Positions 40,487 to 46,452 of a DNA stretch of 64,000 bases are shown here, in pieces (position 1 is the stretch's first letter; every line of letters starts with the position of its first letter). The notes under the pieces are model-generated. The model had not been told where the DNA came from. It saw nothing but the letters and a program-made list of their open reading frames with translations, and searched no databases. A program made the position numbers and the translations under genes. This DNA is from an uncultured bacterium (GTDB lineage Bacteria; Chlamydiota; Chlamydiia; Chlamydiales; FEN-1388). The stretch is from NCBI GenBank assembly GCA_964577935.1, contig CAZOAJ010000007.1, forward strand, positions 20,273 to 84,272, read 5' to 3'.

Positions 40487-40629
40487 AGAGTCGTTATTTC
40501 CTAACTAGTTTATCCACGAAATTGTAGAGCGTTTGATGAAATTTTCCTATAAAGATTCATTTTATCTCTCCTCTTAAAAGGATTTGGGTGCTAGACTATC
40601 TGAAATCTTTAGCCGACATCTTTAGTTGT

Positions 40630-40716
40630 GGAGGGGTGTCCGAGCGGCTGAAGGAGCGCGCTTGGAAAGCGCGTATACGTGAGAACGTATCGTGGGTTCG
40701 AATCCCACCCCCTCCG
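40630..40716 (+). tRNA. tRNA-Ser (anticodon GGA)
   Basis: Hand-folded: acceptor GGAGGGG/CCCCTCC, anticodon stem CGCGC/GCGCG with loop TTGGAAA, long variable arm, T-arm GTGGG-TTCGAAT-CCCAC. No encoded CCA. Confidence 0.9.
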
Positions 40717-40758
40717 TCATTTTTCTTGCTCTTCTGGTCAATAAAGTCGTTATCTCGC

Positions 40759-41670
40759 TCAATTCAGTGATAAATCACCAATAGTCTCTGTCAACTGTCT
40801 AAAATATCTTGTGTCACAGTCATCTTCTAAAGCCCAAATCCATGAAAGGACAGCTTTCAGTAGGCACCAATCAAGAATCTTTTGAGAAGGTACTCCAAAG
40901 ATTTCAGCAAAATAGATGATGCGATTGCTCATAATAATTTTTGCAGTGTTCAAAGAAAATAGTTCCGGAATTGGATTACATATAAAAGCTGCTGCCTCAT
41001 AAGCGGGTTCGCCTACTACGCCTTTTGGGTCAATTACTATCCACGAGCCATCATTTTGTAGGATATTTTCATGATGTAGGTCTCCATGAAGTAATATCTC
41101 CTTTGTGGGCATTTGAAGGAGTCGATCGCGAACTTGTCTGGCTTGATGAAGATAGTGCTGTTCTATCTCCCAATCTTTGTCTAAGCAACTAAGCAAGTCT
41201 TTGATATGAGGAAAGGTATGCTTTAAAGGAATTGGTGCTAGGTGTAGCTGTTTCATTACACTCGAAGCGATTTCCATAGACTCGGTATCATTTTTTGGAA
41301 AATAGGGGCTTAAAGAGGTTCCAGGAATAGCTTGCTCTAGGAGAAGCATTCCCTTTTCTAGTGCAATAATCTCAACTGCTCCGAATTTTCTAAACGCTTT
41401 GAGTGCCTCGGCTTCCTGGCTTAATCCATCAATATCTAGTCCAAGCTTCAAGACAATAGGTCGAACGCCTTGAAAACCCGACATCAGAAAGTGATAGTTT
41501 TGATTTAAAACTGGGGCAAGATTATCCAAGCCATACATTGCCGAGATCCTGCGTACAATTTTAGGTAGGTTTTGAAGCCACTCTTTACCCTGTTTGCCAT
41601 AGGCCATGAGGATGTATGAGGTGAAGTTCAACTGGTAATCTCCAAGATTATTATGGCGTTGTCTTTGCAT
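40759..41670 (-). CDS. Aminoglycoside phosphotransferase family kinase, APH(6)/StrB-like
   Basis: LLHGDLHHENILQNDGSWIVIDPKGVVGEPAYEAA closely resembles the catalytic/Mg-binding segment of APH(6) streptomycin kinases (HGDLHHEN ... IDP.G). Confidence 0.75.
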   Translation of the reverse strand: MQRQRHNNLGDYQLNFTSYILMAYGKQGKEWLQNLPKIVRRISAMYGLDNLAPVLNQNYHFLMSGFQGVRPIVLKLGLDIDGLSQEAEALKAFRKFGAVEIIALEKGMLLLEQAIPGTSLSPYFPKNDTESMEIASSVMKQLHLAPIPLKHTFPHIKDLLSCLDKDWEIEQHYLHQARQVRDRLLQMPTKEILLHGDLHHENILQNDGSWIVIDPKGVVGEPAYEAAAFICNPIPELFSLNTAKIIMSNRIIYFAEIFGVPSQKILDWCLLKAVLSWIWALEDDCDTRYFRQLTETIGDLSLN

Positions 41671-41729
41671 AAATTGAAGGCTTTATTATGCAGACATAGT
41701 GGCGATCTTGAAAGCTGTAACATATTCCG

Positions 41730-41766
41730 TTGATTATTAGTAAACTCGCATATAATATACATGTAT
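41730..41766 (+). promoter_or_regulatory. Candidate promoter plus palindrome upstream of the SRPBCC-marR operon
   Basis: TTGATT (41730-35), a 15-nt spacer, TATAAT (41751-56), immediately followed by the perfect 10-bp palindrome ATACATGTAT (41757-66). An AAAGGA RBS precedes the ATG at 41782. Confidence 0.3.
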
Positions 41767-41781
41767 TTATAAAGGATATGT

Positions 41782-42207
41782 ATGTGGACCAAATCATTTA
41801 GCAAAACTTATCAAGGCGTAAAAAAAGAAGATGTCTGGGCGCTGTGGAAAGATATTAATAATTGGCCACAATGGCATGGCGATCTCGAGAGTTGTAAATT
41901 AGAGGGGGACTTCATTGTAGGGAATCATTTTTTCTTACAACCGAAAGGGATGAAGCCTATAAAGATTTCGCTTACCGAAATCGAAGAAGGAACAAAGTTT
42001 ACTGACTGCACAACCTTTTTCGGGGCTAAAATGTATGATACACATGCTATGGAAGAGACTCCAGAGGGATTAAAGCTTACAAATACTCTTGTAGTAACGG
42101 GTCCGCTTAAATGGCTATGGATTAAGCTTGTTGCTCAAAATGTTGCCGATACGGTTCCGAATGAGATGGATTCTCTTGTCAATCTTGCGAGGAAAATTCA
42201 TGTCTAA
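41782..42207 (+). CDS. SRPBCC (START/polyketide-cyclase-like) ligand-binding protein
   Basis: 141 aa. The N-terminus V.KEDVWALWKDINNWPQWHGDLESC and overall pattern are typical of SRPBCC small-molecule-binding proteins. Confidence 0.7.
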   Translation: MWTKSFSKTYQGVKKEDVWALWKDINNWPQWHGDLESCKLEGDFIVGNHFFLQPKGMKPIKISLTEIEEGTKFTDCTTFFGAKMYDTHAMEETPEGLKLTNTLVVTGPLKWLWIKLVAQNVADTVPNEMDSLVNLARKIHV

Positions 42208-42649
42208 TCTCCCATTTGGTTTTGACAGGCCAGAAGACAGCCCAGGCTTTTTATTATGGCAAACAACCATGATATGGCAACGGCGTATTAGGAAGGCCCT
42301 CGATGCTCATGGGATCTCTCACGCTCAATTCGTGATTATGGCCAGTTTGTTATGGTTTGAAGCTCATAAATATGATCCGACGCAAATCCTTATCGTGAAC
42401 TTGACGAAACTAGATAAAATGACGGTCTCTAAGTCGCTGAAAAAACTCGCAGCTTTGGGGCTTGTTCATCGGATAGAGCACGAAAGAGATACGCGCGCTA
42501 AAAGTGTATCTCTCTCAGATAATGGCAAAAATTTGGTGCGTTTACTGGTTCCTTTGATTGAACAAATTGATAGCAATTTTTTCGGCAAGGTTCACCAGAT
42601 AGATCAAATCCGGCTTATTCAGATTCTGGGAAAATTAACCATAGATTGA
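42200..42649 (+). CDS. MarR-family transcriptional regulator
   Basis: wHTH region LTKLDKMTVSKSLKKLAALGLVHRIEHERDTRAKSVSLSDNG. The ATG at 42200 overlaps the SRPBCC stop by 8 nt. Confidence 0.8.
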   Translation: MSNLPFGFDRPEDSPGFLLWQTTMIWQRRIRKALDAHGISHAQFVIMASLLWFEAHKYDPTQILIVNLTKLDKMTVSKSLKKLAALGLVHRIEHERDTRAKSVSLSDNGKNLVRLLVPLIEQIDSNFFGKVHQIDQIRLIQILGKLTID

Positions 42650-42804
42650 GTTTTTAAATTGAGTCATTATTTTTCTAGCAAAATGAGTACGGTCGGATTG
42701 AAAGGCATGTGTAATATTTTTTCTTTGTCCATTTCAGTGTGAATAGTCTGACATGGCTCTCCACAAGTGCTCTAAGAATTCCTCGTTTGAATGGTTACAT
42801 TCTA

Positions 42805-42852
42805 TTGTTCAATCTGTTCAATATTTATTGAACAGTGTATTATAATGAACAG
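42805..42852 (+). promoter_or_regulatory. Nested inverted-repeat operator overlapping a TATAAT box, upstream of the wHTH/NTase pair
   Basis: TGTTCA occurs twice (42806-11, 42815-20) and TGAACA twice (42829-34, 42846-51). The inner pair is part of a perfect 10+10 palindrome, CTGTTCAATA-TT-TATTGAACAG (42814-42835). TATAAT lies at 42841-46, and the ATG at 42865. Confidence 0.45.
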
Positions 42853-42864
42853 TAGGGGTTTTTT

Positions 42865-43593
42865 ATGAAAGGTCAGTTTCTCCTAGGTTCCAATGAAAAA
42901 TCTGCTGAAGGCAATATCTACTCTAATAAATCCTCTCTTATTCTCGAATGGCTGCTAAGAGAGGGCGTGAATAACCAATCATTGTCCTTAAGAAAAGTAG
43001 CCAATGAGATAAGTGTAAGTCTTGGATTAGTACAACGCGTTTTTGAAATTCTAGTTTTGAAGGGAATTTTGCAAACAGAAGGAGTTAGAACTGCCAAAAA
43101 GTTTTTTCTTAAGAACCCAAAACTCCTTCTTGAAAGCTGGTTAAACCAGTATAGCATCGTCAAAAAATGTAAAATGAGAACTTATCATTCTGGATTTCAA
43201 GATAAAGTAGAGCTTTTAGAAGCGCTGAAAAAATCAAATCTCATTCAAAAAGTCGCGTTAGCTCTCCATTCAGCAGCTGACGCGTATGGATGCAAAAACA
43301 CTAATTTAAACACTCTTGAATTATATCTACTTGATCCCTTGGTTAGACCACAAATTGAGAAAAAGTTGTTATTAGAGCCCCAAGAAAAAGGATATGAAGT
43401 CTTGCTAATTGAGCCTTACTATGAAAGTTTGCTCAAAGCTGCTTGCAATACAAGCCAAGATATTAGTGCTTCTCTGCCGATTTTGACTTTTTTGGATTTA
43501 TACCATTTCCCCTTGCGTGGGCAAGAGCAGGCAGAATTTATGGCTGCACGTCTTCCTGAACTTAAGCGAATCTATAAGCGCGATAAATCATAA
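42865..43593 (+). CDS. wHTH protein, AbiEi-like (putative type IV antitoxin / autorepressor)
   Basis: N-terminal wHTH (LSLRKVANEISVSLGLVQRVFEILVLKGIL) followed by a ~150-aa C-terminal domain. The stop overlaps the next start (TAATG). Confidence 0.55.
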   Translation: MKGQFLLGSNEKSAEGNIYSNKSSLILEWLLREGVNNQSLSLRKVANEISVSLGLVQRVFEILVLKGILQTEGVRTAKKFFLKNPKLLLESWLNQYSIVKKCKMRTYHSGFQDKVELLEALKKSNLIQKVALALHSAADAYGCKNTNLNTLELYLLDPLVRPQIEKKLLLEPQEKGYEVLLIEPYYESLLKAACNTSQDISASLPILTFLDLYHFPLRGQEQAEFMAARLPELKRIYKRDKS

Positions 43594-44372
43594 TGATATC
43601 CAATCAAGAAGACAAAATCATTTCAGAATTTTTAGATTCGATTGGCCCCTGGCGGGATTTGATTGTCATTGGAGGTGGTTTTGCGCTTTTTATCTACAAA
43701 CTTTATTTGGCAGATCAAAAATTGAAGAACCTACCAATAGGAACAAGAGATATCGATTCACTTATTCCTCGGAAGATTCCAGAATTATCACAAAAGAACA
43801 TTCAAAATTATCTTCGAGAAGCTGGTTTCAGTCATGTTTTTAAAGATGTAAGTCATCCGGCAACGGAAGCTTATGTCAAGGAAATTGCGGGCTCGGAAGT
43901 TGAAATCGAATTTTTGACCGACGATTCAGTTAGGAAGGACAAAACTAAAAATGTCGTCATTGCTGGAGTAGTTGCTCAACCGCTTAGCTATTTAACCTTA
44001 AGTTTGCAGACAACCATAAAATTTCATACCTACTCAAATGTCACAGGAAATGTGGTTACACCTGGAGCTTGGATATTCCATAAGGGTCTTACATTTACGA
44101 AACGCAAAAACGCTTTAAAGAGCCTTAAGGATCTCTACGGCATTTGGTACGTAACCTCTCAGTTGGGCGATTTTTCTGAAAGTGCTCTAGATGAATTCAG
44201 CGCACTTGCAAAACAGCATTCAAAATGGTTTAAAACTTTTCAGAAAAATTTACAAACTTGGCTTAACAATGCATCTCCGAGTGATTGGTCTAAGTTAGAA
44301 TTGCAAGACCCTTCTGGCAGATTACGCAAACTTAATTTTGAACAAATTATGAAAAAGCTTAGGACAGCCTAA
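43593..44372 (+). CDS. Nucleotidyltransferase-fold protein, AbiEii/DUF1814-like (putative toxin)
   Basis: Pol-beta NTase signature GGGFALFIY ... GTRDIDSL, then EVEIEFLTD (third acidic residue), and a late K..KDLYGIWY block resembling AbiEii motifs. Confidence 0.6.
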   Translation: MISNQEDKIISEFLDSIGPWRDLIVIGGGFALFIYKLYLADQKLKNLPIGTRDIDSLIPRKIPELSQKNIQNYLREAGFSHVFKDVSHPATEAYVKEIAGSEVEIEFLTDDSVRKDKTKNVVIAGVVAQPLSYLTLSLQTTIKFHTYSNVTGNVVTPGAWIFHKGLTFTKRKNALKSLKDLYGIWYVTSQLGDFSESALDEFSALAKQHSKWFKTFQKNLQTWLNNASPSDWSKLELQDPSGRLRKLNFEQIMKKLRTA

Positions 44373-44480
44373 TTCCTCAAAAAGAAGAGGTGCAAACTAT
44401 GACATTCTCGAGCCCTTTTCAACTCTTGGCTGCGTAACATGAGTGAGTTAATGGGCTGTACAACTTATTCCTGTATGGCT

Positions 44481-45737
44481 CTAATCATCAAGAAGTTTGT
44501 TTTTCTTCAAGCGTAGCCTTGTAAAATATTCAAGACGTTTTTTTAATTCTCGCTCAAAGCCTCTTTCTACGGGATGATACATCTCTTCAGGCTTCATCTC
44601 TTCTGGGAAGTAGTTTTGACCAGAAAAGGCATCTTCAAGATCGTGATCCCATACGTACCCTTTACCAAAACCTTCTTTCTTCATCCAGGAGGTTTCAGCG
44701 TTGATGATAGTTTTTGGAGGAAGAAAATGCGCTGTCTTTTTAGCTCTCTCCCGTGCTTGAGAAAAAGCTGTGTATCCTGAAGCACTCTTAGGGCTTAAAG
44801 CGAGATAGATTACGGTTTGAGCTAGAGCCAAATCACCTTCTGGACTACCCATGACTTCATAAGCTTTTTGTGCTGAAAGAGCAACATGGAGGGCTTGAGG
44901 GTCTGCAAGTCCTATATCTTCAACTGCCATTCGTATAAGTCTTCTTGAGATGTATAGAGGGTCTTCGCCTCCTTCAAGAAGTCTTGCAAGCCAATAGAGG
45001 GCTGCGTCTACGTCTGATCCTCTTACCGATTTATGGAGAGCTGAGATGTAAATGTATCTTCCTTCGCCAAATACGGATGAACGATAATCTAAAAGATCTT
45101 TGAGGTTTGATTCATCGAAATCAGGAATTTCTCGAATTTGTTCGATTTTGTTTAAGAGTTTCCTAGCATCTCCTTGAACGGATTCAGCAAGCATTGCCTT
45201 TGAAGCATCTGAAAGATGAATCGGTCCTATTTTGGCCTCTATTCTGTCGATTAAGGCAAGAAGCTCTTCTTGAGAGAGCGATTTTAATGTGAGAACAAAT
45301 AGGCGTGAAAGAAGAGCAGGAGATAGCTCAAATGATGGATTTTCTGTTGTTGCACCTACAAGCACTATTAAGCCAGTTTCTATTCCGTGAAGGAGGAGAT
45401 CTTGCTGGGGTCTCAAAAGTCTATGTATTTCATCAATCCAAAGGATCGTTGGGCGAAAGAGGGGCTCATTTCTACTTCTCTCAAGAACCTGTTTAATGTC
45501 ACTTGAAGAGGCTTGAGATGGGATAAGAGAGCTTATTGGTTGCGAGAATGACTTAAGATAGAGTTTCGCGATTGTTGTTTTTCCCGAGCCTGGTGGACCA
45601 TAAAGGAGGATATTTTTAGGTTTCTTGGATTGGATAGAGCGAAGAATTTGTCCATCGGTCGAAAGAATGTGAGATTGACCAACAATGGAATCCCATGAGG
45701 ACGGACGAAGTTGTTCGCTTAAAGGCAGGTGCGACAT
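44481..45737 (-). CDS. rarA: Replication-associated recombination protein A (AAA+ ATPase)
   Basis: Walker A GPPGSGKTT, Walker B ILWIDEIH, and the MgsA C-terminal block ISALHKSVRGSDVDAALYWLARLLEGGEDPLYISRRL. Confidence 0.9.
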   Translation of the reverse strand: MSHLPLSEQLRPSSWDSIVGQSHILSTDGQILRSIQSKKPKNILLYGPPGSGKTTIAKLYLKSFSQPISSLIPSQASSSDIKQVLERSRNEPLFRPTILWIDEIHRLLRPQQDLLLHGIETGLIVLVGATTENPSFELSPALLSRLFVLTLKSLSQEELLALIDRIEAKIGPIHLSDASKAMLAESVQGDARKLLNKIEQIREIPDFDESNLKDLLDYRSSVFGEGRYIYISALHKSVRGSDVDAALYWLARLLEGGEDPLYISRRLIRMAVEDIGLADPQALHVALSAQKAYEVMGSPEGDLALAQTVIYLALSPKSASGYTAFSQARERAKKTAHFLPPKTIINAETSWMKKEGFGKGYVWDHDLEDAFSGQNYFPEEMKPEEMYHPVERGFERELKKRLEYFTRLRLKKNKLLDD

Positions 45738-45822
45738 CTACTTTCACTTTGAGTATCTGGGTGTATTCGGTGTAGGATTATATCATTTAATTTTCAATTA
45801 AATCGCGATATTATTTGATATA

Positions 45823-46452
45823 TTATTTTGTTTTAATCGGACATCCATACGGAATTGTTTCAGATGTATAGATATACTTACCCTTAAGAAGATTGTCGAT
45901 GGCCTCTCGCACCAATTGTCTATTGATCGGATTCACTACATCTTCTGGGTCGGTGCTTGGGATTGTATCTATAGCTCCTCTATAGGCAATCGTTCCATCT
46001 GGGCCAATAATTACAAATTCCGGGGTTTTGGTGACTCCATACATACGAGCTATAGAACCGCTGTCATCAATCAGCATGGCGGACGGTTTTGCATCCCACC
46101 TATGAAGAATTTCCTTCCATTCTTCAGGAGTTTTATGCCCCTCTTGTCCTGGGCCTTGAGAGCATATGAGAAACCAAACTACATTTGGATTTTTTGTAAA
46201 TTCCGCCTGCATATTCGGAATATTTTTTGAACCTAGGTAGTGTTTCCGAACGTAGGAACATTCTGGATTTGTCCATTCTAAAACGATGACTTTTCCTTCA
46301 TTCTCGGAAATGGACTGAGGAATGCTATTAATATCTGTCTTTGTAAACTTAGGGGCTTCACTTCCAGACGATGGATATGCAAAAAGAGCTACTGAACAGC
46401 ATGTAATTACTGAAAATATTAGATAGCGTGCATATAAAAGCAGGGTATTCAT
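45823..46452 (-). CDS. Secreted thioredoxin-fold (redoxin/TlpA-like) protein
   Basis: Signal peptide, then WTNPECSYV at the position of the CxxC motif (only a single Cys), and GVTKTPEFVIIGPDGTIAYRG, typical of redoxin-fold proteins. Confidence 0.6.
   Translation of the reverse strand: MNTLLLYARYLIFSVITCCSVALFAYPSSGSEAPKFTKTDINSIPQSISENEGKVIVLEWTNPECSYVRKHYLGSKNIPNMQAEFTKNPNVVWFLICSQGPGQEGHKTPEEWKEILHRWDAKPSAMLIDDSGSIARMYGVTKTPEFVIIGPDGTIAYRGAIDTIPSTDPEDVVNPINRQLVREAIDNLLKGKYIYTSETIPYGCPIKTK

Follow-up and report, generated by a model that had tools for sequence, protein, structure and literature searches.

The window analysed here, a 64-kb (64,000-nt) stretch of DNA from an uncultured bacterium whose chlamydia-like character, proposed in the initial annotation, is supported by hallmark genes, holds a self-contained cassette of 1.6 kb consisting of an operator and two coupled genes. 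The first gene encodes a wHTH protein of 242 aa and the second a nucleotidyltransferase (NTase) of 259 aa, and both ORFs and their TAATG overlap lie as first described. The features are:

42800..44373, + strand: whole cassette (operator/promoter and two genes), the sole stretch with DNA similarity to 67 related loci
Upstream of both ORFs: cluster of TGTTCA/TGAACA half-sites (sequence repeats), overlapping TATAAT
42806..42811, + strand: outer left half-site TGTTCA, off-register (9 nt before the inner site; 17 nt in the family)
42814..42835, no strand: inner palindrome CTGTTCAATA-TT-TATTGAACAG, half-sites 2 and 3, a perfect inverted repeat and the predicted core operator
42841..42846, + strand: TATAAT, a -10-like box between half-sites 3 and 4, read from the sequence
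42846..42852, + strand: half-site 4, TGAACAG, 17 nt after half-site 3, conserved across loci
42854..42858, + strand: Shine-Dalgarno-like AGGGG, 6 nt before the ATG, read from the sequence (family consensus aaGGaG)
42865-43593, + strand: wHTH protein ORF, 242 aa, with its ATG at 42865
43590..43595, + strand: TAATG stop/start overlap (1 nt), read from the sequence
43593-44372, + strand: NTase ORF, 259 aa, downstream of the wHTH gene

When positions 41001-46000 of the window were compared with the related loci by blastn, all matches began at 42800-42815 and finished at 44310-44373, and the shared DNA similarity thus runs from the operator to the NTase stop codon. None of the 7 genes flanking the window cassette is present in any of the 67 related loci, and for this lack of flanking synteny the conserved metabolic operon that had been considered at the outset was rejected. 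The wHTH and NTase genes are adjacent in 65 of the 65 loci with the upstream region present, and they overlap in 35 of 45 intact loci, in which the junction is a 4-nt ATGA overlap (31 loci), a 1-nt overlap (4 loci) or, for the remainder, within +/-11 nt. The TAATG junction in the window suggests translational coupling. The GC content of the cassette is only slightly low (36.9% vs 40.4%).

The 259-aa protein matches NTP_transf_8 (PF12281, the NCBI "GSU2403 family") at 45.9 bits (cutoff 26.3, E 9e-12), and the motifs first read from it, GGGFALFIY, GTRDIDS, EVEIEFLTD and KSLKDLYGIWY, are all present. Its key residues (G27-G29, T51-R52-D53-I54-D55, E104/E106, K164...R171 and K179-D180) are 100% conserved in 46 chlamydial sequences; across 83 NTase sequences down to 30% identity G28, G29, T51, D53, E104, E106, K164, R171, K179 and D180 are invariant and D55 is conserved in at least 90%. 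By the published definitions of the DUF1814 motifs I (hG[GS]), II (DhD), III (K-x6-R) and IV (+DxxD) (PMC3985639), G27-G29 make up motif I, D53-I-D55, directly after T51 and R52, forms motif II, and motif III is K164-GLTFTK-R171 with the aromatic F168, while motif IV is half present as K179-D180-L-Y-G, with the second Asp absent. A match to the AbiEii profile PF08843, which the initial annotation had proposed to look for, was not obtained even at E <= 10; PF08843 is matched as a second family by 10 of 45 distant family members. The initial assignment to an AbiE-type or related module is borne out for the AbiE/MenAT (DUF1814) superfamily, but the cassette belongs to a sister branch, PF09952+PF12281, and not to the AbiEii branch.

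A structure model of the NTase built from an alignment that included distant GSU2403-family sequences reached a pLDDT of 91.9 and a pTM of 0.90, and replaced an earlier, poor model from a shallow chlamydial alignment (pLDDT 62, disordered catalytic core). Foldseek placed its fold nearest the MenT/DUF1814 superfamily, with Pb27 (5uvd, E 1e-5) and MenT1 (8an4, 8an5 and 8rr5; probability 1.0) as top matches and TM1012 (2EWR/2FCL) as a further one, at moderate TM-scores of 0.41-0.53; PDB sequence searches with chlamydial-clade and whole-family profiles gave no meaningful match. MenT1 (Rv0078A), from MenAT1 of Mycobacterium tuberculosis, is a type VII toxin-antitoxin (TA) toxin and a tRNA 3'-end NTase, and at only ~11-12% sequence identity it has a conserved-residue pattern in common with the cassette NTase, in which T51, D53, K164 and D180 fit T39, D41, K137 and D152 of MenT1 at similar spacing (PMC11375011). 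The T51-x-D53 arrangement, a Ser/Thr two residues before the catalytic Asp, is invariant in the 83 sequences and in 46/46 chlamydial copies, and T51 sits in the alpha3-beta2 loop of the model, the loop in which the MenT phosphoacceptors are located (bioRxiv 10.64898/2026.01.19.700257). The putative equivalence of T51 and MenT1 T39 is judged from pattern and topology, not from superposition. The two systems also differ: MenA1 is a small non-wHTH antitoxin, encoded differently from the cassette partner, and the cassette NTase is longer (259 aa vs ~190 aa for MenT1), with an extra helical C-terminal region.

The best structural match, Pb27, is a Paracoccidioides NTase-like antigen and not a toxin, and the DUF1814 superfamily also includes ANT(2'')-Ia (bioRxiv 10.64898/2026.01.19.700257). 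These relatives lend some weight to an alternative in which the cassette is no TA system but a repressor-controlled enzyme, whose NTase would modify a small molecule (for example an antibiotic, the kind of substrate of ANT(2'')-Ia) or a specific cellular substrate, and whose wHTH protein would be a ligand-responsive regulator or a structural subunit of the NTase. Against it, the invariant T-x-D, K and D fit the pattern of the toxin MenT1. Pb27 and TM1012 are both stand-alone proteins that have neither the wHTH partner nor the operator of the cassette.

The first protein was initially described as a wHTH protein with an extra C-terminal domain, and this description holds: HTH matches at residues 25-75 are weak, and residues 83-226 match Pfam AbiEi_2 (PF09952 = COG4861) at 23.8 bits (cutoff 21, E 6e-5), a family for which most of its close homologues have a precomputed match. 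No other AbiEi-type Pfam family was matched at E <= 10, and no match to HEPN was found. The protein also aligns at 25% identity (E 3e-14) with residues 136-345 of an AbiEi_2 protein, 356 aa long, whose partner is a distant GSU2403-family NTase. That the C-terminal domain of the partner is the AbiEi_2 antitoxin domain is a further point against the enzyme alternative. On the evidence of sequence and model we predict that the 242-aa protein is an autorepressor and antitoxin and the 259-aa NTase the toxin. Our preferred reading, to which we give a probability of about 63%, is that the cassette is a mobile, autorepressed TA-type module of the AbiE/MenAT (DUF1814) superfamily, in its PF09952+PF12281 branch.

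The same pairing of PF09952 and PF12281 also occurs in distant Desulfobacterota-type contigs (L069, L070 and L072), and the COG4861-COG4849 gene pairing was noted bioinformatically by Dy et al. 2014 (PMC3985639), with COG4849 putatively corresponding to PF12281. Like the cassette, these COG4861 (PF09952) - COG4849-type NTase pairs have both Pfam families above cutoff and the same gene order, a regulator followed by an overlapping NTase. The chlamydial NTase clade is 30-35% identical to the NTases of the distant pairs, and the chlamydial partner, at 242 aa vs ~356-360 aa, is without ~130 N-terminal residues; unlike the distant pairs, the chlamydial cassette has its own conserved TGTTCA operator. 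NCBI already names the homologues "type IV TA system AbiEi family antitoxin" and "GSU2403 family nucleotidyltransferase fold protein". With these names and the pairing noted by Dy et al., the initial suggestion of a possible new family falls away: the branch is already annotated and the cassette is not a new kind of system. A literature search found no experiment on PF12281 members or on PF09952+PF12281 pairs, and these identifiers turned up in just 3 papers. Natural single-chain fusions of the two proteins (P0245, P0247 and P0258) argue for their physical interaction, and they would also suit an enzyme with its subunit or regulator.

Among characterized systems, the cassette can be compared with AbiE of Streptococcus agalactiae and Lactococcus (COG5340 + COG2253/DUF1814 PF08843). 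Both are bicistronic, with a wHTH antitoxin or antitoxin-like gene preceding a pol-beta NTase gene, both first proteins consist of a wHTH and a C-terminal domain, both promoters carry inverted repeats (IR1/IR2 of AbiE being TGTTGCTTTTA-N27-TAAAAGCAACA), and motifs I-III are common to the two NTases, as is a Thr that precedes the first catalytic Asp by two residues (T65/D67 in AbiEii, T51/D53 here). Unlike AbiE, the cassette has a motif IV without the second Asp, a longer G-to-D spacing (~24 residues) and an operator of four short half-sites (17/14/17 spacing) in place of two 23-bp repeats. By its Pfam matches the cassette lies outside AbiE sensu stricto: the NTase is without PF08843 and the partner is of PF09952 and not of the COG5340 type. 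The MNT-HEPN type VII TA systems likewise join a small pol-beta NTase gene to one other gene in a TA-like cassette, but there the NTase is the antitoxin and HEPN the toxin, whereas the cassette partner is wHTH/AbiEi_2; an MNT-HEPN identity was ruled out because a Pfam search found no HEPN partner gene.

The nested TGTTCA/TGAACA repeats reported upstream are real. TGTTCAAT is present twice in direct orientation (42806 and 42815), 42814-42823 and 42826-42835 form a perfect inverted repeat with 10+10-nt arms 2 nt apart, and TATTGAACAGT (42826) and TAATGAACAGT (42843) form a direct repeat. The inner palindrome overlaps the likely -35 region and spacer, and its type is unique in the 64-kb window except for one loose-pattern match. 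The two strands of the window together contain 51 copies of TGTTCA, or ~0.037 expected per 46 bp, and the Poisson estimate for four TGTTCA in 46 bp anywhere in the window is ~0.005, with the orientation pattern not yet considered. Decisive against chance is that the same layout, with the consensus CTGTTCA-N10-CTGTTCA-N8-TGAACAG-N10-TGAACAG, precedes the gene pair in ~50 other loci. TGTTCA-N8-TGAACA is exact in 49/54 loci. Half-site 4, which coincides in part with the -10 box, at its end, and with the expected start of transcription, is exact in 49/54 loci and present in variant form in all 54, and lies 12-14 nt before the ATG in 47/54. The family consensus site 1 at -17 is exact in 40/54 loci (47/54 with variants). 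The four-site operator first proposed for the window is in register for sites 2-4 but not for the outer left site, which lies at 9 instead of 17 nt: the canonical site-1 position (42798-42803) is a degenerate CATTCT, and a local duplication of 9 bp, CTGTTCAAT, seems to account for the TGTTCA at 42806. Most loci retain an A/T-rich TAnnnT hexamer at the TATAAT position, for which a promoter scan made no call because the -35 is weak.

The repeats could instead act as nucleic-acid structure, either by terminating transcription of the upstream MarR gene or by forming a hairpin in the 5' UTR: a consensus scan flags 42814-42835 as terminator-like, and the region 42795-42870 folds as a nested hairpin (-20.3 kcal/mol, z = -4.3). 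Yet the repeats travel with the cassette and with no upstream gene, the stem is A/T-rich, and the -10-like box between sites 3 and 4 implies that most of the repeats are probably not transcribed. Arm variation across 49 loci is almost all one-sided (7 non-paired vs 1 compensated cells for the inner arms, 35 vs 2 for the outer arms), and such non-compensatory variation favours protein binding over a hairpin. Moreover, the half-site shifts together with the protein in the fusion clade, where it becomes TGTTTAC as the recognition helix diverges; recognition-helix covariation between TGTTCC and TGTTCA operator loci amounted to a weak, non-discriminating L55S trend only. We consider a purely structural role very improbable, and the repeats are better read as the operator of the TA-type module. 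Rfam returned tRNA as its sole match.

The cassette recurs in at least 67 further species representatives of environmental chlamydiae, which belong to several families. Conservation of the proteins is unusually high (55-89% across chlamydial families, with synonymous sites saturated), as one would sooner expect of a domesticated gene than of a defence or TA module that evolves fast. Purifying selection is strong on both genes, with dN/dS of ~0.10 for the wHTH gene and ~0.09 for the NTase gene. The high conservation and low dN/dS would also suit the enzyme alternative. So would the locus L036, in which an intact NTase stands beside a badly disrupted partner gene, although this locus comes from a long-read MAG. 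Decay otherwise is toxin-biased, with ~7 loci having a broken NTase and an intact partner (in L060 the NTase is interrupted by a DDE transposase). Next to the window cassette are an APH-like kinase, an SRPBCC protein and a MarR regulator, which would fit the enzyme alternative, but this neighbourhood is common to none of the 67 loci. TA logic accounts well for the close coupling of the genes, their autoregulatory design, the patchy and mobile distribution and the decay biased towards the toxin, and we judge the enzyme alternative to be quite unlikely.

Mobility of the TA-type module is supported by a subset of cassettes in related loci that adjoins tyrosine integrases, tRNA-Met fragments and genes for patatin and the YhcG nuclease. 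Homologues of the integrase and of the phosphoesterase are both missing from the 64-kb window itself, a search of it for att-like repeats of the neighbouring tRNA-Ser(GGA) was negative, and an empty-site search with the neighbouring RarA against metagenome contigs gave best relatives that are <=54% identical and not syntenic. The same neighbourhoods bear on whether these parts were selected for abortive-infection phage defence, as an Abi system proper, in which infection by a chlamydial phage or another invader would free the NTase or switch it on, as in lactococcal and streptococcal AbiE. Membership of the AbiE superfamily points in this direction, as do defence-island neighbours at some loci (patatin, YhcG/DUF1016 PDDEXK nuclease, a weak HEPN-like protein and integrase) and the suggestion of the DefenseFinder authors that chlamydiae may carry currently unknown defence systems (PMC9090908). 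However, the neighbours in the window are housekeeping or unrelated, and strong purifying selection with slow protein evolution is unlike the usual arms-race pattern. The PADLOC check first suggested also went against it, with no valid match to either protein: no PADLOC-DB v2.0.0 family matched the first, and the NTase gave only a spurious GajA match (E 0.026). PHROGs and NCBIfam libraries gave no usable match for either protein, and no cassette relative was found among PLSDB plasmids, INPHARED phages and IMG/VR contigs; absence from the phage and viral collections is neutral for defence and gives no hint of phage interplay. Given the integrase-bearing islands, addiction or stabilization of mobile DNA is at least as likely as phage pressure. 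We judge phage defence proper to be an unlikely reading, and for the TA-type module the pay-off may be either phage defence or mobile-DNA stabilization.

In the preferred reading of a TA-type module, the wHTH protein would bind the TGTTCA half-sites over the -35 and -10 elements and silence its own promoter, and the two genes would be translated as a coupled pair. The NTase would be an active pol-beta-fold enzyme that, when unrestrained, adds nucleotides to tRNA 3' ends and halts translation, an action proposed by analogy with MenT1, MenT3 and AbiEii. The C-terminal domain of the wHTH protein would bind and neutralize the NTase, probably by inducing the NTase to phosphorylate itself at the invariant Thr51, which precedes the catalytic Asp53 by two residues, so that by analogy with MenT the mechanism is possibly type VII (phospho-T51).

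In 7 related loci the cassette has a linked gene for an orthologous calcineurin-like metallophosphoesterase, which in four (L018, L024, L026 and L034) is fused into the operon, 16-19 nt downstream of the NTase, and lies in a divergent DUF1398-phosphoesterase operon, with an operator region common with the cassette, in the other three (L008, L009 and L052). One example is:

L018:6799-7347: metallophosphoesterase linked to the cassette

From these arrangements we advance, as a decidedly speculative extension, that the two cassette genes might form the core of a phospho-switch that has no kinase and accepts a dedicated third component. If so, dephosphorylation of phospho-Thr51 by the metallophosphoesterase would arm the NTase toxin again on a signal; if the enzyme instead trims the RNA product of the toxin, the toxin effect would be undone. 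In both cases the cassette would work as a growth switch that is complete in itself and can be reversed. Such a switch would be common among obligate intracellular chlamydiae and escape the current defence finders, and it might tie to persistence or to competition within amoebae.

Chlamydiae are said to have almost no known defence systems (PMC9090908), and TA systems have been called rare in them (PMC10880633), in agreement with the initial remark that such modules are not a recognized part of chlamydial biology. Here, an AbiE/MenAT-superfamily cassette is present in at least 67 chlamydial species representatives and is undetected by PADLOC models. The cassette is a clean and compact test case for the uncharacterized PF09952+PF12281 branch, offering a minimal 242-aa partner, a candidate phosphoacceptor in T51, a four-site operator with natural variants and fusion proteins, and it would allow the hypothesis that antitoxin-induced autophosphorylation is widespread to be tested outside the DUF1814 family proper.

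The two overlapping genes of the chlamydial cassette, together with their operator, probably form an autorepressed toxin-antitoxin-type module of the AbiE/MenAT superfamily, a reading to which we assign a probability of about 0.63. As the initial annotation had described, the ORFs encode 242 and 259 aa and share one base within TAATG. The cassette and its upstream surroundings in the window are laid out as follows.

Features of the cassette and its upstream flank (window coordinates)
40629-40718: tRNA-Ser(GGA)
40759-41670, reverse strand: APH(6)/hydroxyurea-kinase-like gene
41782-42207: SRPBCC/polyketide-cyclase-like gene
about 42200-42649: MarR-type regulator
42841-42846: TATAAT
42854-42858: AGGGG, Shine-Dalgarno-like
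42865: ATG of the first gene
42865-43593, forward strand: first ORF, 242 aa
43593-44372, forward strand: second ORF, 259 aa

In Pfam, the 242-aa protein matches PF09952 AbiEi_2 over residues 83-226 (23.8 bits, cutoff 21), with weak HTH matches at residues 25-75, and the 259-aa protein matches PF12281 NTP_transf_8 (45.9 bits, cutoff 26.3). The AbiEii profile PF08843, suggested initially, did not match the 259-aa protein even at E <= 10. AbiE sensu stricto has a PF08843 toxin and a COG5340-type antitoxin; since the chlamydial pair fails both tests, it is not AbiE itself, which narrows the earlier assignment to an AbiE-type or related module. PADLOC, the sole defence-system library tested, left the cassette undetected, with no match to the 242-aa protein and only a spurious one, to GajA (E 0.026), for the 259-aa protein. 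The former had no significant PHROGs match and only sub-threshold regulator matches in NCBIfam; the latter had no match in either. The proposal of a possible new family does not hold: close homologues are named by NCBI as "type IV toxin-antitoxin system AbiEi family antitoxin" and "GSU2403 family nucleotidyltransferase fold protein", so the pair is already recognisable by annotation, and COG4861-COG4849 pairs, COG4861 being PF09952 (PMC7251935), were listed as AbiE relatives by Dy et al. 2014 (PMC3985639). In a full-text literature search PF12281, PF09952, GSU2403 or AbiEi_2 came up in only three papers, none with an experimental characterisation of a member. Within the annotated, so far only computationally described PF09952+PF12281 branch, the cassette represents a clearly delimited chlamydial clade.

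Chlamydial sequences alone, in a shallow alignment, gave only a poor structural model of the NTase. Enlarging the alignment with 30-35% identical GSU2403-family sequences (representative and profile searches) gave a confident model (pLDDT 91.9, pTM 0.90), for which the top Foldseek PDB match was Pb27 (5uvd, E 1e-5), followed by MenT1 (8an5, 8an4, 8rr5; E about 1e-3, probability 1.0, TM 0.41-0.53) and TM1012; CD-NTases and CCA-adding enzymes ranked far lower. Pb27 and MenT1, the latter a toxin and tRNA 3'-end NTase, belong to the DUF1814 superfamily (bioRxiv 10.64898/2026.01.19.700257; PMC11375011). Because these are the nearest structures and 10/45 diverse family members also match PF08843 (best E-value 3.6e-6), PF12281 is a sister of DUF1814. 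By published motif definitions (PMC3985639), the NTase contains motif I (G27-G29), motif II (T51-R52-D53-I54-D55), motif III (K164-GLTFTK-R171) and half of motif IV (+DxxD), K179-D180-L-Y-G. T51, D53, K164 and D180 are invariant in 83 sequences down to 30% identity and in 46/46 intact chlamydial copies. They show the same pattern as T39, D41, K137 and D152, the "highly conserved NTase fold residues" of MenT1, whose phosphoacceptor is T39, at a site that is strictly Ser or Thr (PMC11375011). In the model, T51 lies in the alpha3-beta2 loop, the described place of MenT and AbiEii phosphoacceptors. Judged by pattern and topology, the two sets of residues are probably equivalent.

In the wider family, a profile search of 1.84 billion representative proteins yielded only 418 relatives at E <= 1e-3. 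Those that are distant but full-length derive from MAGs of Desulfobacterota type and others, and in 3/3 distant contigs examined a PF09952 gene of 356-360 aa lies directly upstream of the NTase; residues 136-345 of one such protein align with the chlamydial 242-aa protein at 25% identity (E 3e-14). In three related proteins of 479-486 aa (P0245, P0247, P0258), the wHTH/AbiEi_2 part and the NTase are naturally fused in a single polypeptide, as confirmed on their own contigs for both that were looked up, P0245 (L073:4001-5461) and P0258 (L074:809-2248). These fusions are Rosetta-stone evidence for the two proteins acting as a complex.

Surveying the pair with one genome per species, we found 67 loci, every one of which lies in a Chlamydiota MAG or can be assigned to one (including Parachlamydiaceae, Simkaniaceae, Rhabdochlamydiaceae, Waddliaceae, Anoxychlamydiales and Algichlamydia), with NTase identities of 55% to 86%. 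The AbiEi_2 gene lies directly upstream of the NTase wherever the upstream region is present. In every locus, DNA similarity runs from 42800-42815 to 44310-44373; the unit is therefore the operator plus two genes, about 1.57 kb. Purifying selection acts strongly on both genes (median dN/dS 0.10 for the first gene and 0.09 for the NTase), and synonymous divergence is about 0.8-1.3 even against the nearest relatives. Both are intact in 45/67 loci, many broken copies coming from long-read MAGs, in which sequencing errors may explain some frameshifts; among the intact loci, the junction is an ATGA overlap in 31/45 and a 1-nt overlap in 4/45. A broken NTase accompanies an intact partner in about 7 loci, such as L060:3990-5816, where a 608-aa DDE transposase (PF01609) splits the NTase gene at about residue 115. 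The reverse occurs only in L036:5250-6780, where the AbiEi_2 gene is full of stops and frameshifts and the adjacent NTase keeps all catalytic motifs; this pattern is the opposite of the lethal-toxin prediction, in a long-read assembly with possible sequencing errors. In L062 the NTase has an internal deletion, and in L010 and L011 its frame extends about 135 codons beyond the usual stop. A fixed metabolic operon, the alternative named by the initial annotation, is ruled out by the pairing, boundary, selection, junction and decay pattern, and none of seven window neighbours (ZnuA-like, APH-like kinase, SRPBCC, MarR, RarA, redoxin, PutA) occurs within +/-6 kb in any of the 67 loci. The cassette is consistent with a module that is mobile, selfish or accessory.

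Upstream of the first gene, a repeat search recovered the nested inverted repeats noticed earlier, which overlap the TATAAT and include the perfect 10+10 palindrome at 42814-42835. It found two direct copies of TGTTCAAT, at 42806 and 42815, the inverted repeat 42814-42823 / 42826-42835 (CTGTTCAATA-tt-TATTGAACAG), and TATTGAACAGT at 42826 with TAATGAACAGT at 42843. Four copies of TGTTCA in 46 bp are not compositional (Poisson estimate about 0.005 anywhere in the window), since both strands of the window hold 51 against 43 expected. The -35 region is weak (TTCAAT/TCAATA), and a simple promoter scan did not call the cassette promoter. An alignment of the 100 nt preceding the first gene in 54 loci gave the consensus aaCTGTTCaaTATTTtt..CTGTTCAATATATAtTGAACAGTgTAttaTAaTGAACAGaaGGaG...ATG.

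Operator conservation in 54 loci
Inner palindrome (sites 2 and 3): exact in 49/54
Site 4, 17 nt after site 3: exact in 49/54, variant form in 54/54
Site 1, 17 nt before site 2: exact in 40/54, variant in 47/54
Site 4 placed 12-14 nt before the ATG: 47/54

The half-sites are retained among loci whose proteins have diverged to 52-84% identity, which speaks strongly for their being functional. The repeats could instead be a hairpin or terminator: the region, if transcribed, would fold well (-20.3 kcal/mol, z = -4.3), and a terminator scan flags the inner palindrome. However, arm variation over 49 loci is one-sided, with 7 unpaired cells against 1 compensated in the inner arms and 35 against 2 in the outer arms. 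These uncompensated changes favour predicted sequence-specific protein binding at the half-sites over a hairpin. Across the chlamydial clade, the predicted recognition helix, S-L-G-L/S-V-Q-R-V-F, hardly varies; in a divergent fusion clade the helix differs, the operator layout is kept and the half-site is changed (CTGTTTAC-N6-GTAAACAG plus a third GTAAACA, directly before the ATG in L073). The conserved half-site core is CTGTTC, because position 6 varies freely. One subgroup (L002-L006, L032, L055) has TGTTCC/GGAACA at some half-sites and also has in common a weakly HEPN-like gene of 180 aa, located on the opposite strand about 840 bp upstream. Site 1 of the window departs from the family pattern, with CATTCT at the canonical position and a TGTTCA 9 nt before site 2 that looks like a duplication of CTGTTCAAT. 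In locus L008, a second, orphan operator (L008:4353-4400; inner palindrome, site 4 and ATG) precedes the real cassette by about 870 bp, with an opposite-strand gene of 249 aa between the two; this arrangement points to an insertion in which the promoter region was duplicated.

The chlamydial origin of the window is confirmed by an NTP/NDP exchange transporter (689 bits), a CT441-type Tsp protease, a PRK06321-type DnaB and a fused SecDF (PRK12911) typical of chlamydiae. The cassette lies 2.1 kb from tRNA-Ser(GGA), and the small stretch that begins with this tRNA (40629-42649) is accessory-looking; the 64-kb window contains no integrase, att-like repeat or second cassette copy. The RarA/MgsA gene (44481-45737) had no relative above 54% identity in a metagenome-contig scan, against many at 80-89% for the cassette proteins in searches on different collections; this is no more than a hint of better conservation, or greater mobility, of the cassette relative to host housekeeping genes. 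In other loci mobile or defence-type genes adjoin it: up to 17 loci have a tyrosine integrase 1-3 kb downstream (for example, L011:3594-4736 and L021:7718-8854), alongside three conserved small unknown genes (about 240, 97 and 350 aa), and patatin, YhcG/DUF1016 nuclease and weak HEPN-like genes occur near some copies. Upstream, 68-nt tRNA-Met-like fragments lie at about 300 nt (L021:4904-4971, L024:336-403) or about 1.3 kb (L014:3864-3931), and in part of the phylum the cassette appears to be carried at the margin of a tRNA-Met integrative element. Searches of PLSDB plasmids, INPHARED phages and IMG/VR contigs yielded no relatives.

In some loci the cassette is accompanied by an orthologous calcineurin-like metallophosphoesterase (PF00149), placed in one of two arrangements whose versions are 62-67% identical; the 64-kb window has no homologue.

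Metallophosphoesterase loci
Downstream, third gene 16-19 nt past the NTase stop: L018:6799-7347, L024:2232-2672, L026:2721-3227, L034:750-1256
Divergent, in a DUF1398-phosphoesterase operon starting about 50-100 nt from the cassette operator: L008:3335-3874, L009:4197-4649, L052:4196-4621

It could be a phosphatase for a phospho-toxin or an RNA-end repair enzyme.

Whereas the family, fold, key residues, pairing, cassette limits, selection and conservation of the operator are observed here, we infer DNA binding, NTase toxicity, its target and phosphorylation as parts of one scheme. The wHTH protein would bind TGTTCA half-sites over the -35/-10 region and repress the operon, and coupled translation would yield both proteins. 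The NTase, as a MenT/AbiEii-like enzyme, would extend tRNA 3' ends and block translation, and the AbiEi_2 domain of the partner would bind and neutralise it, probably via induced autophosphorylation of T51. The model for this last step is the antitoxin-induced autophosphorylation shown for MenT1, MenT3 and AbiEii (PMC11375011; bioRxiv 10.64898/2026.01.19.700257); we regard the specific tRNA and phospho-T51 steps as tentative.

Known defence systems have been reported to be in "quasi absence" from chlamydiae (PMC9090908), where TA systems, too, are regarded as rare (PMC10880633). Given this scarcity, the PADLOC miss and its value as a test case for autophosphorylation, the cassette is moderately interesting. 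The chlamydial clade is a compact system in which to test the generality of antitoxin-induced autophosphorylation, and the recurrent metallophosphoesterase linkage in two gene arrangements is the lead with the most novelty.
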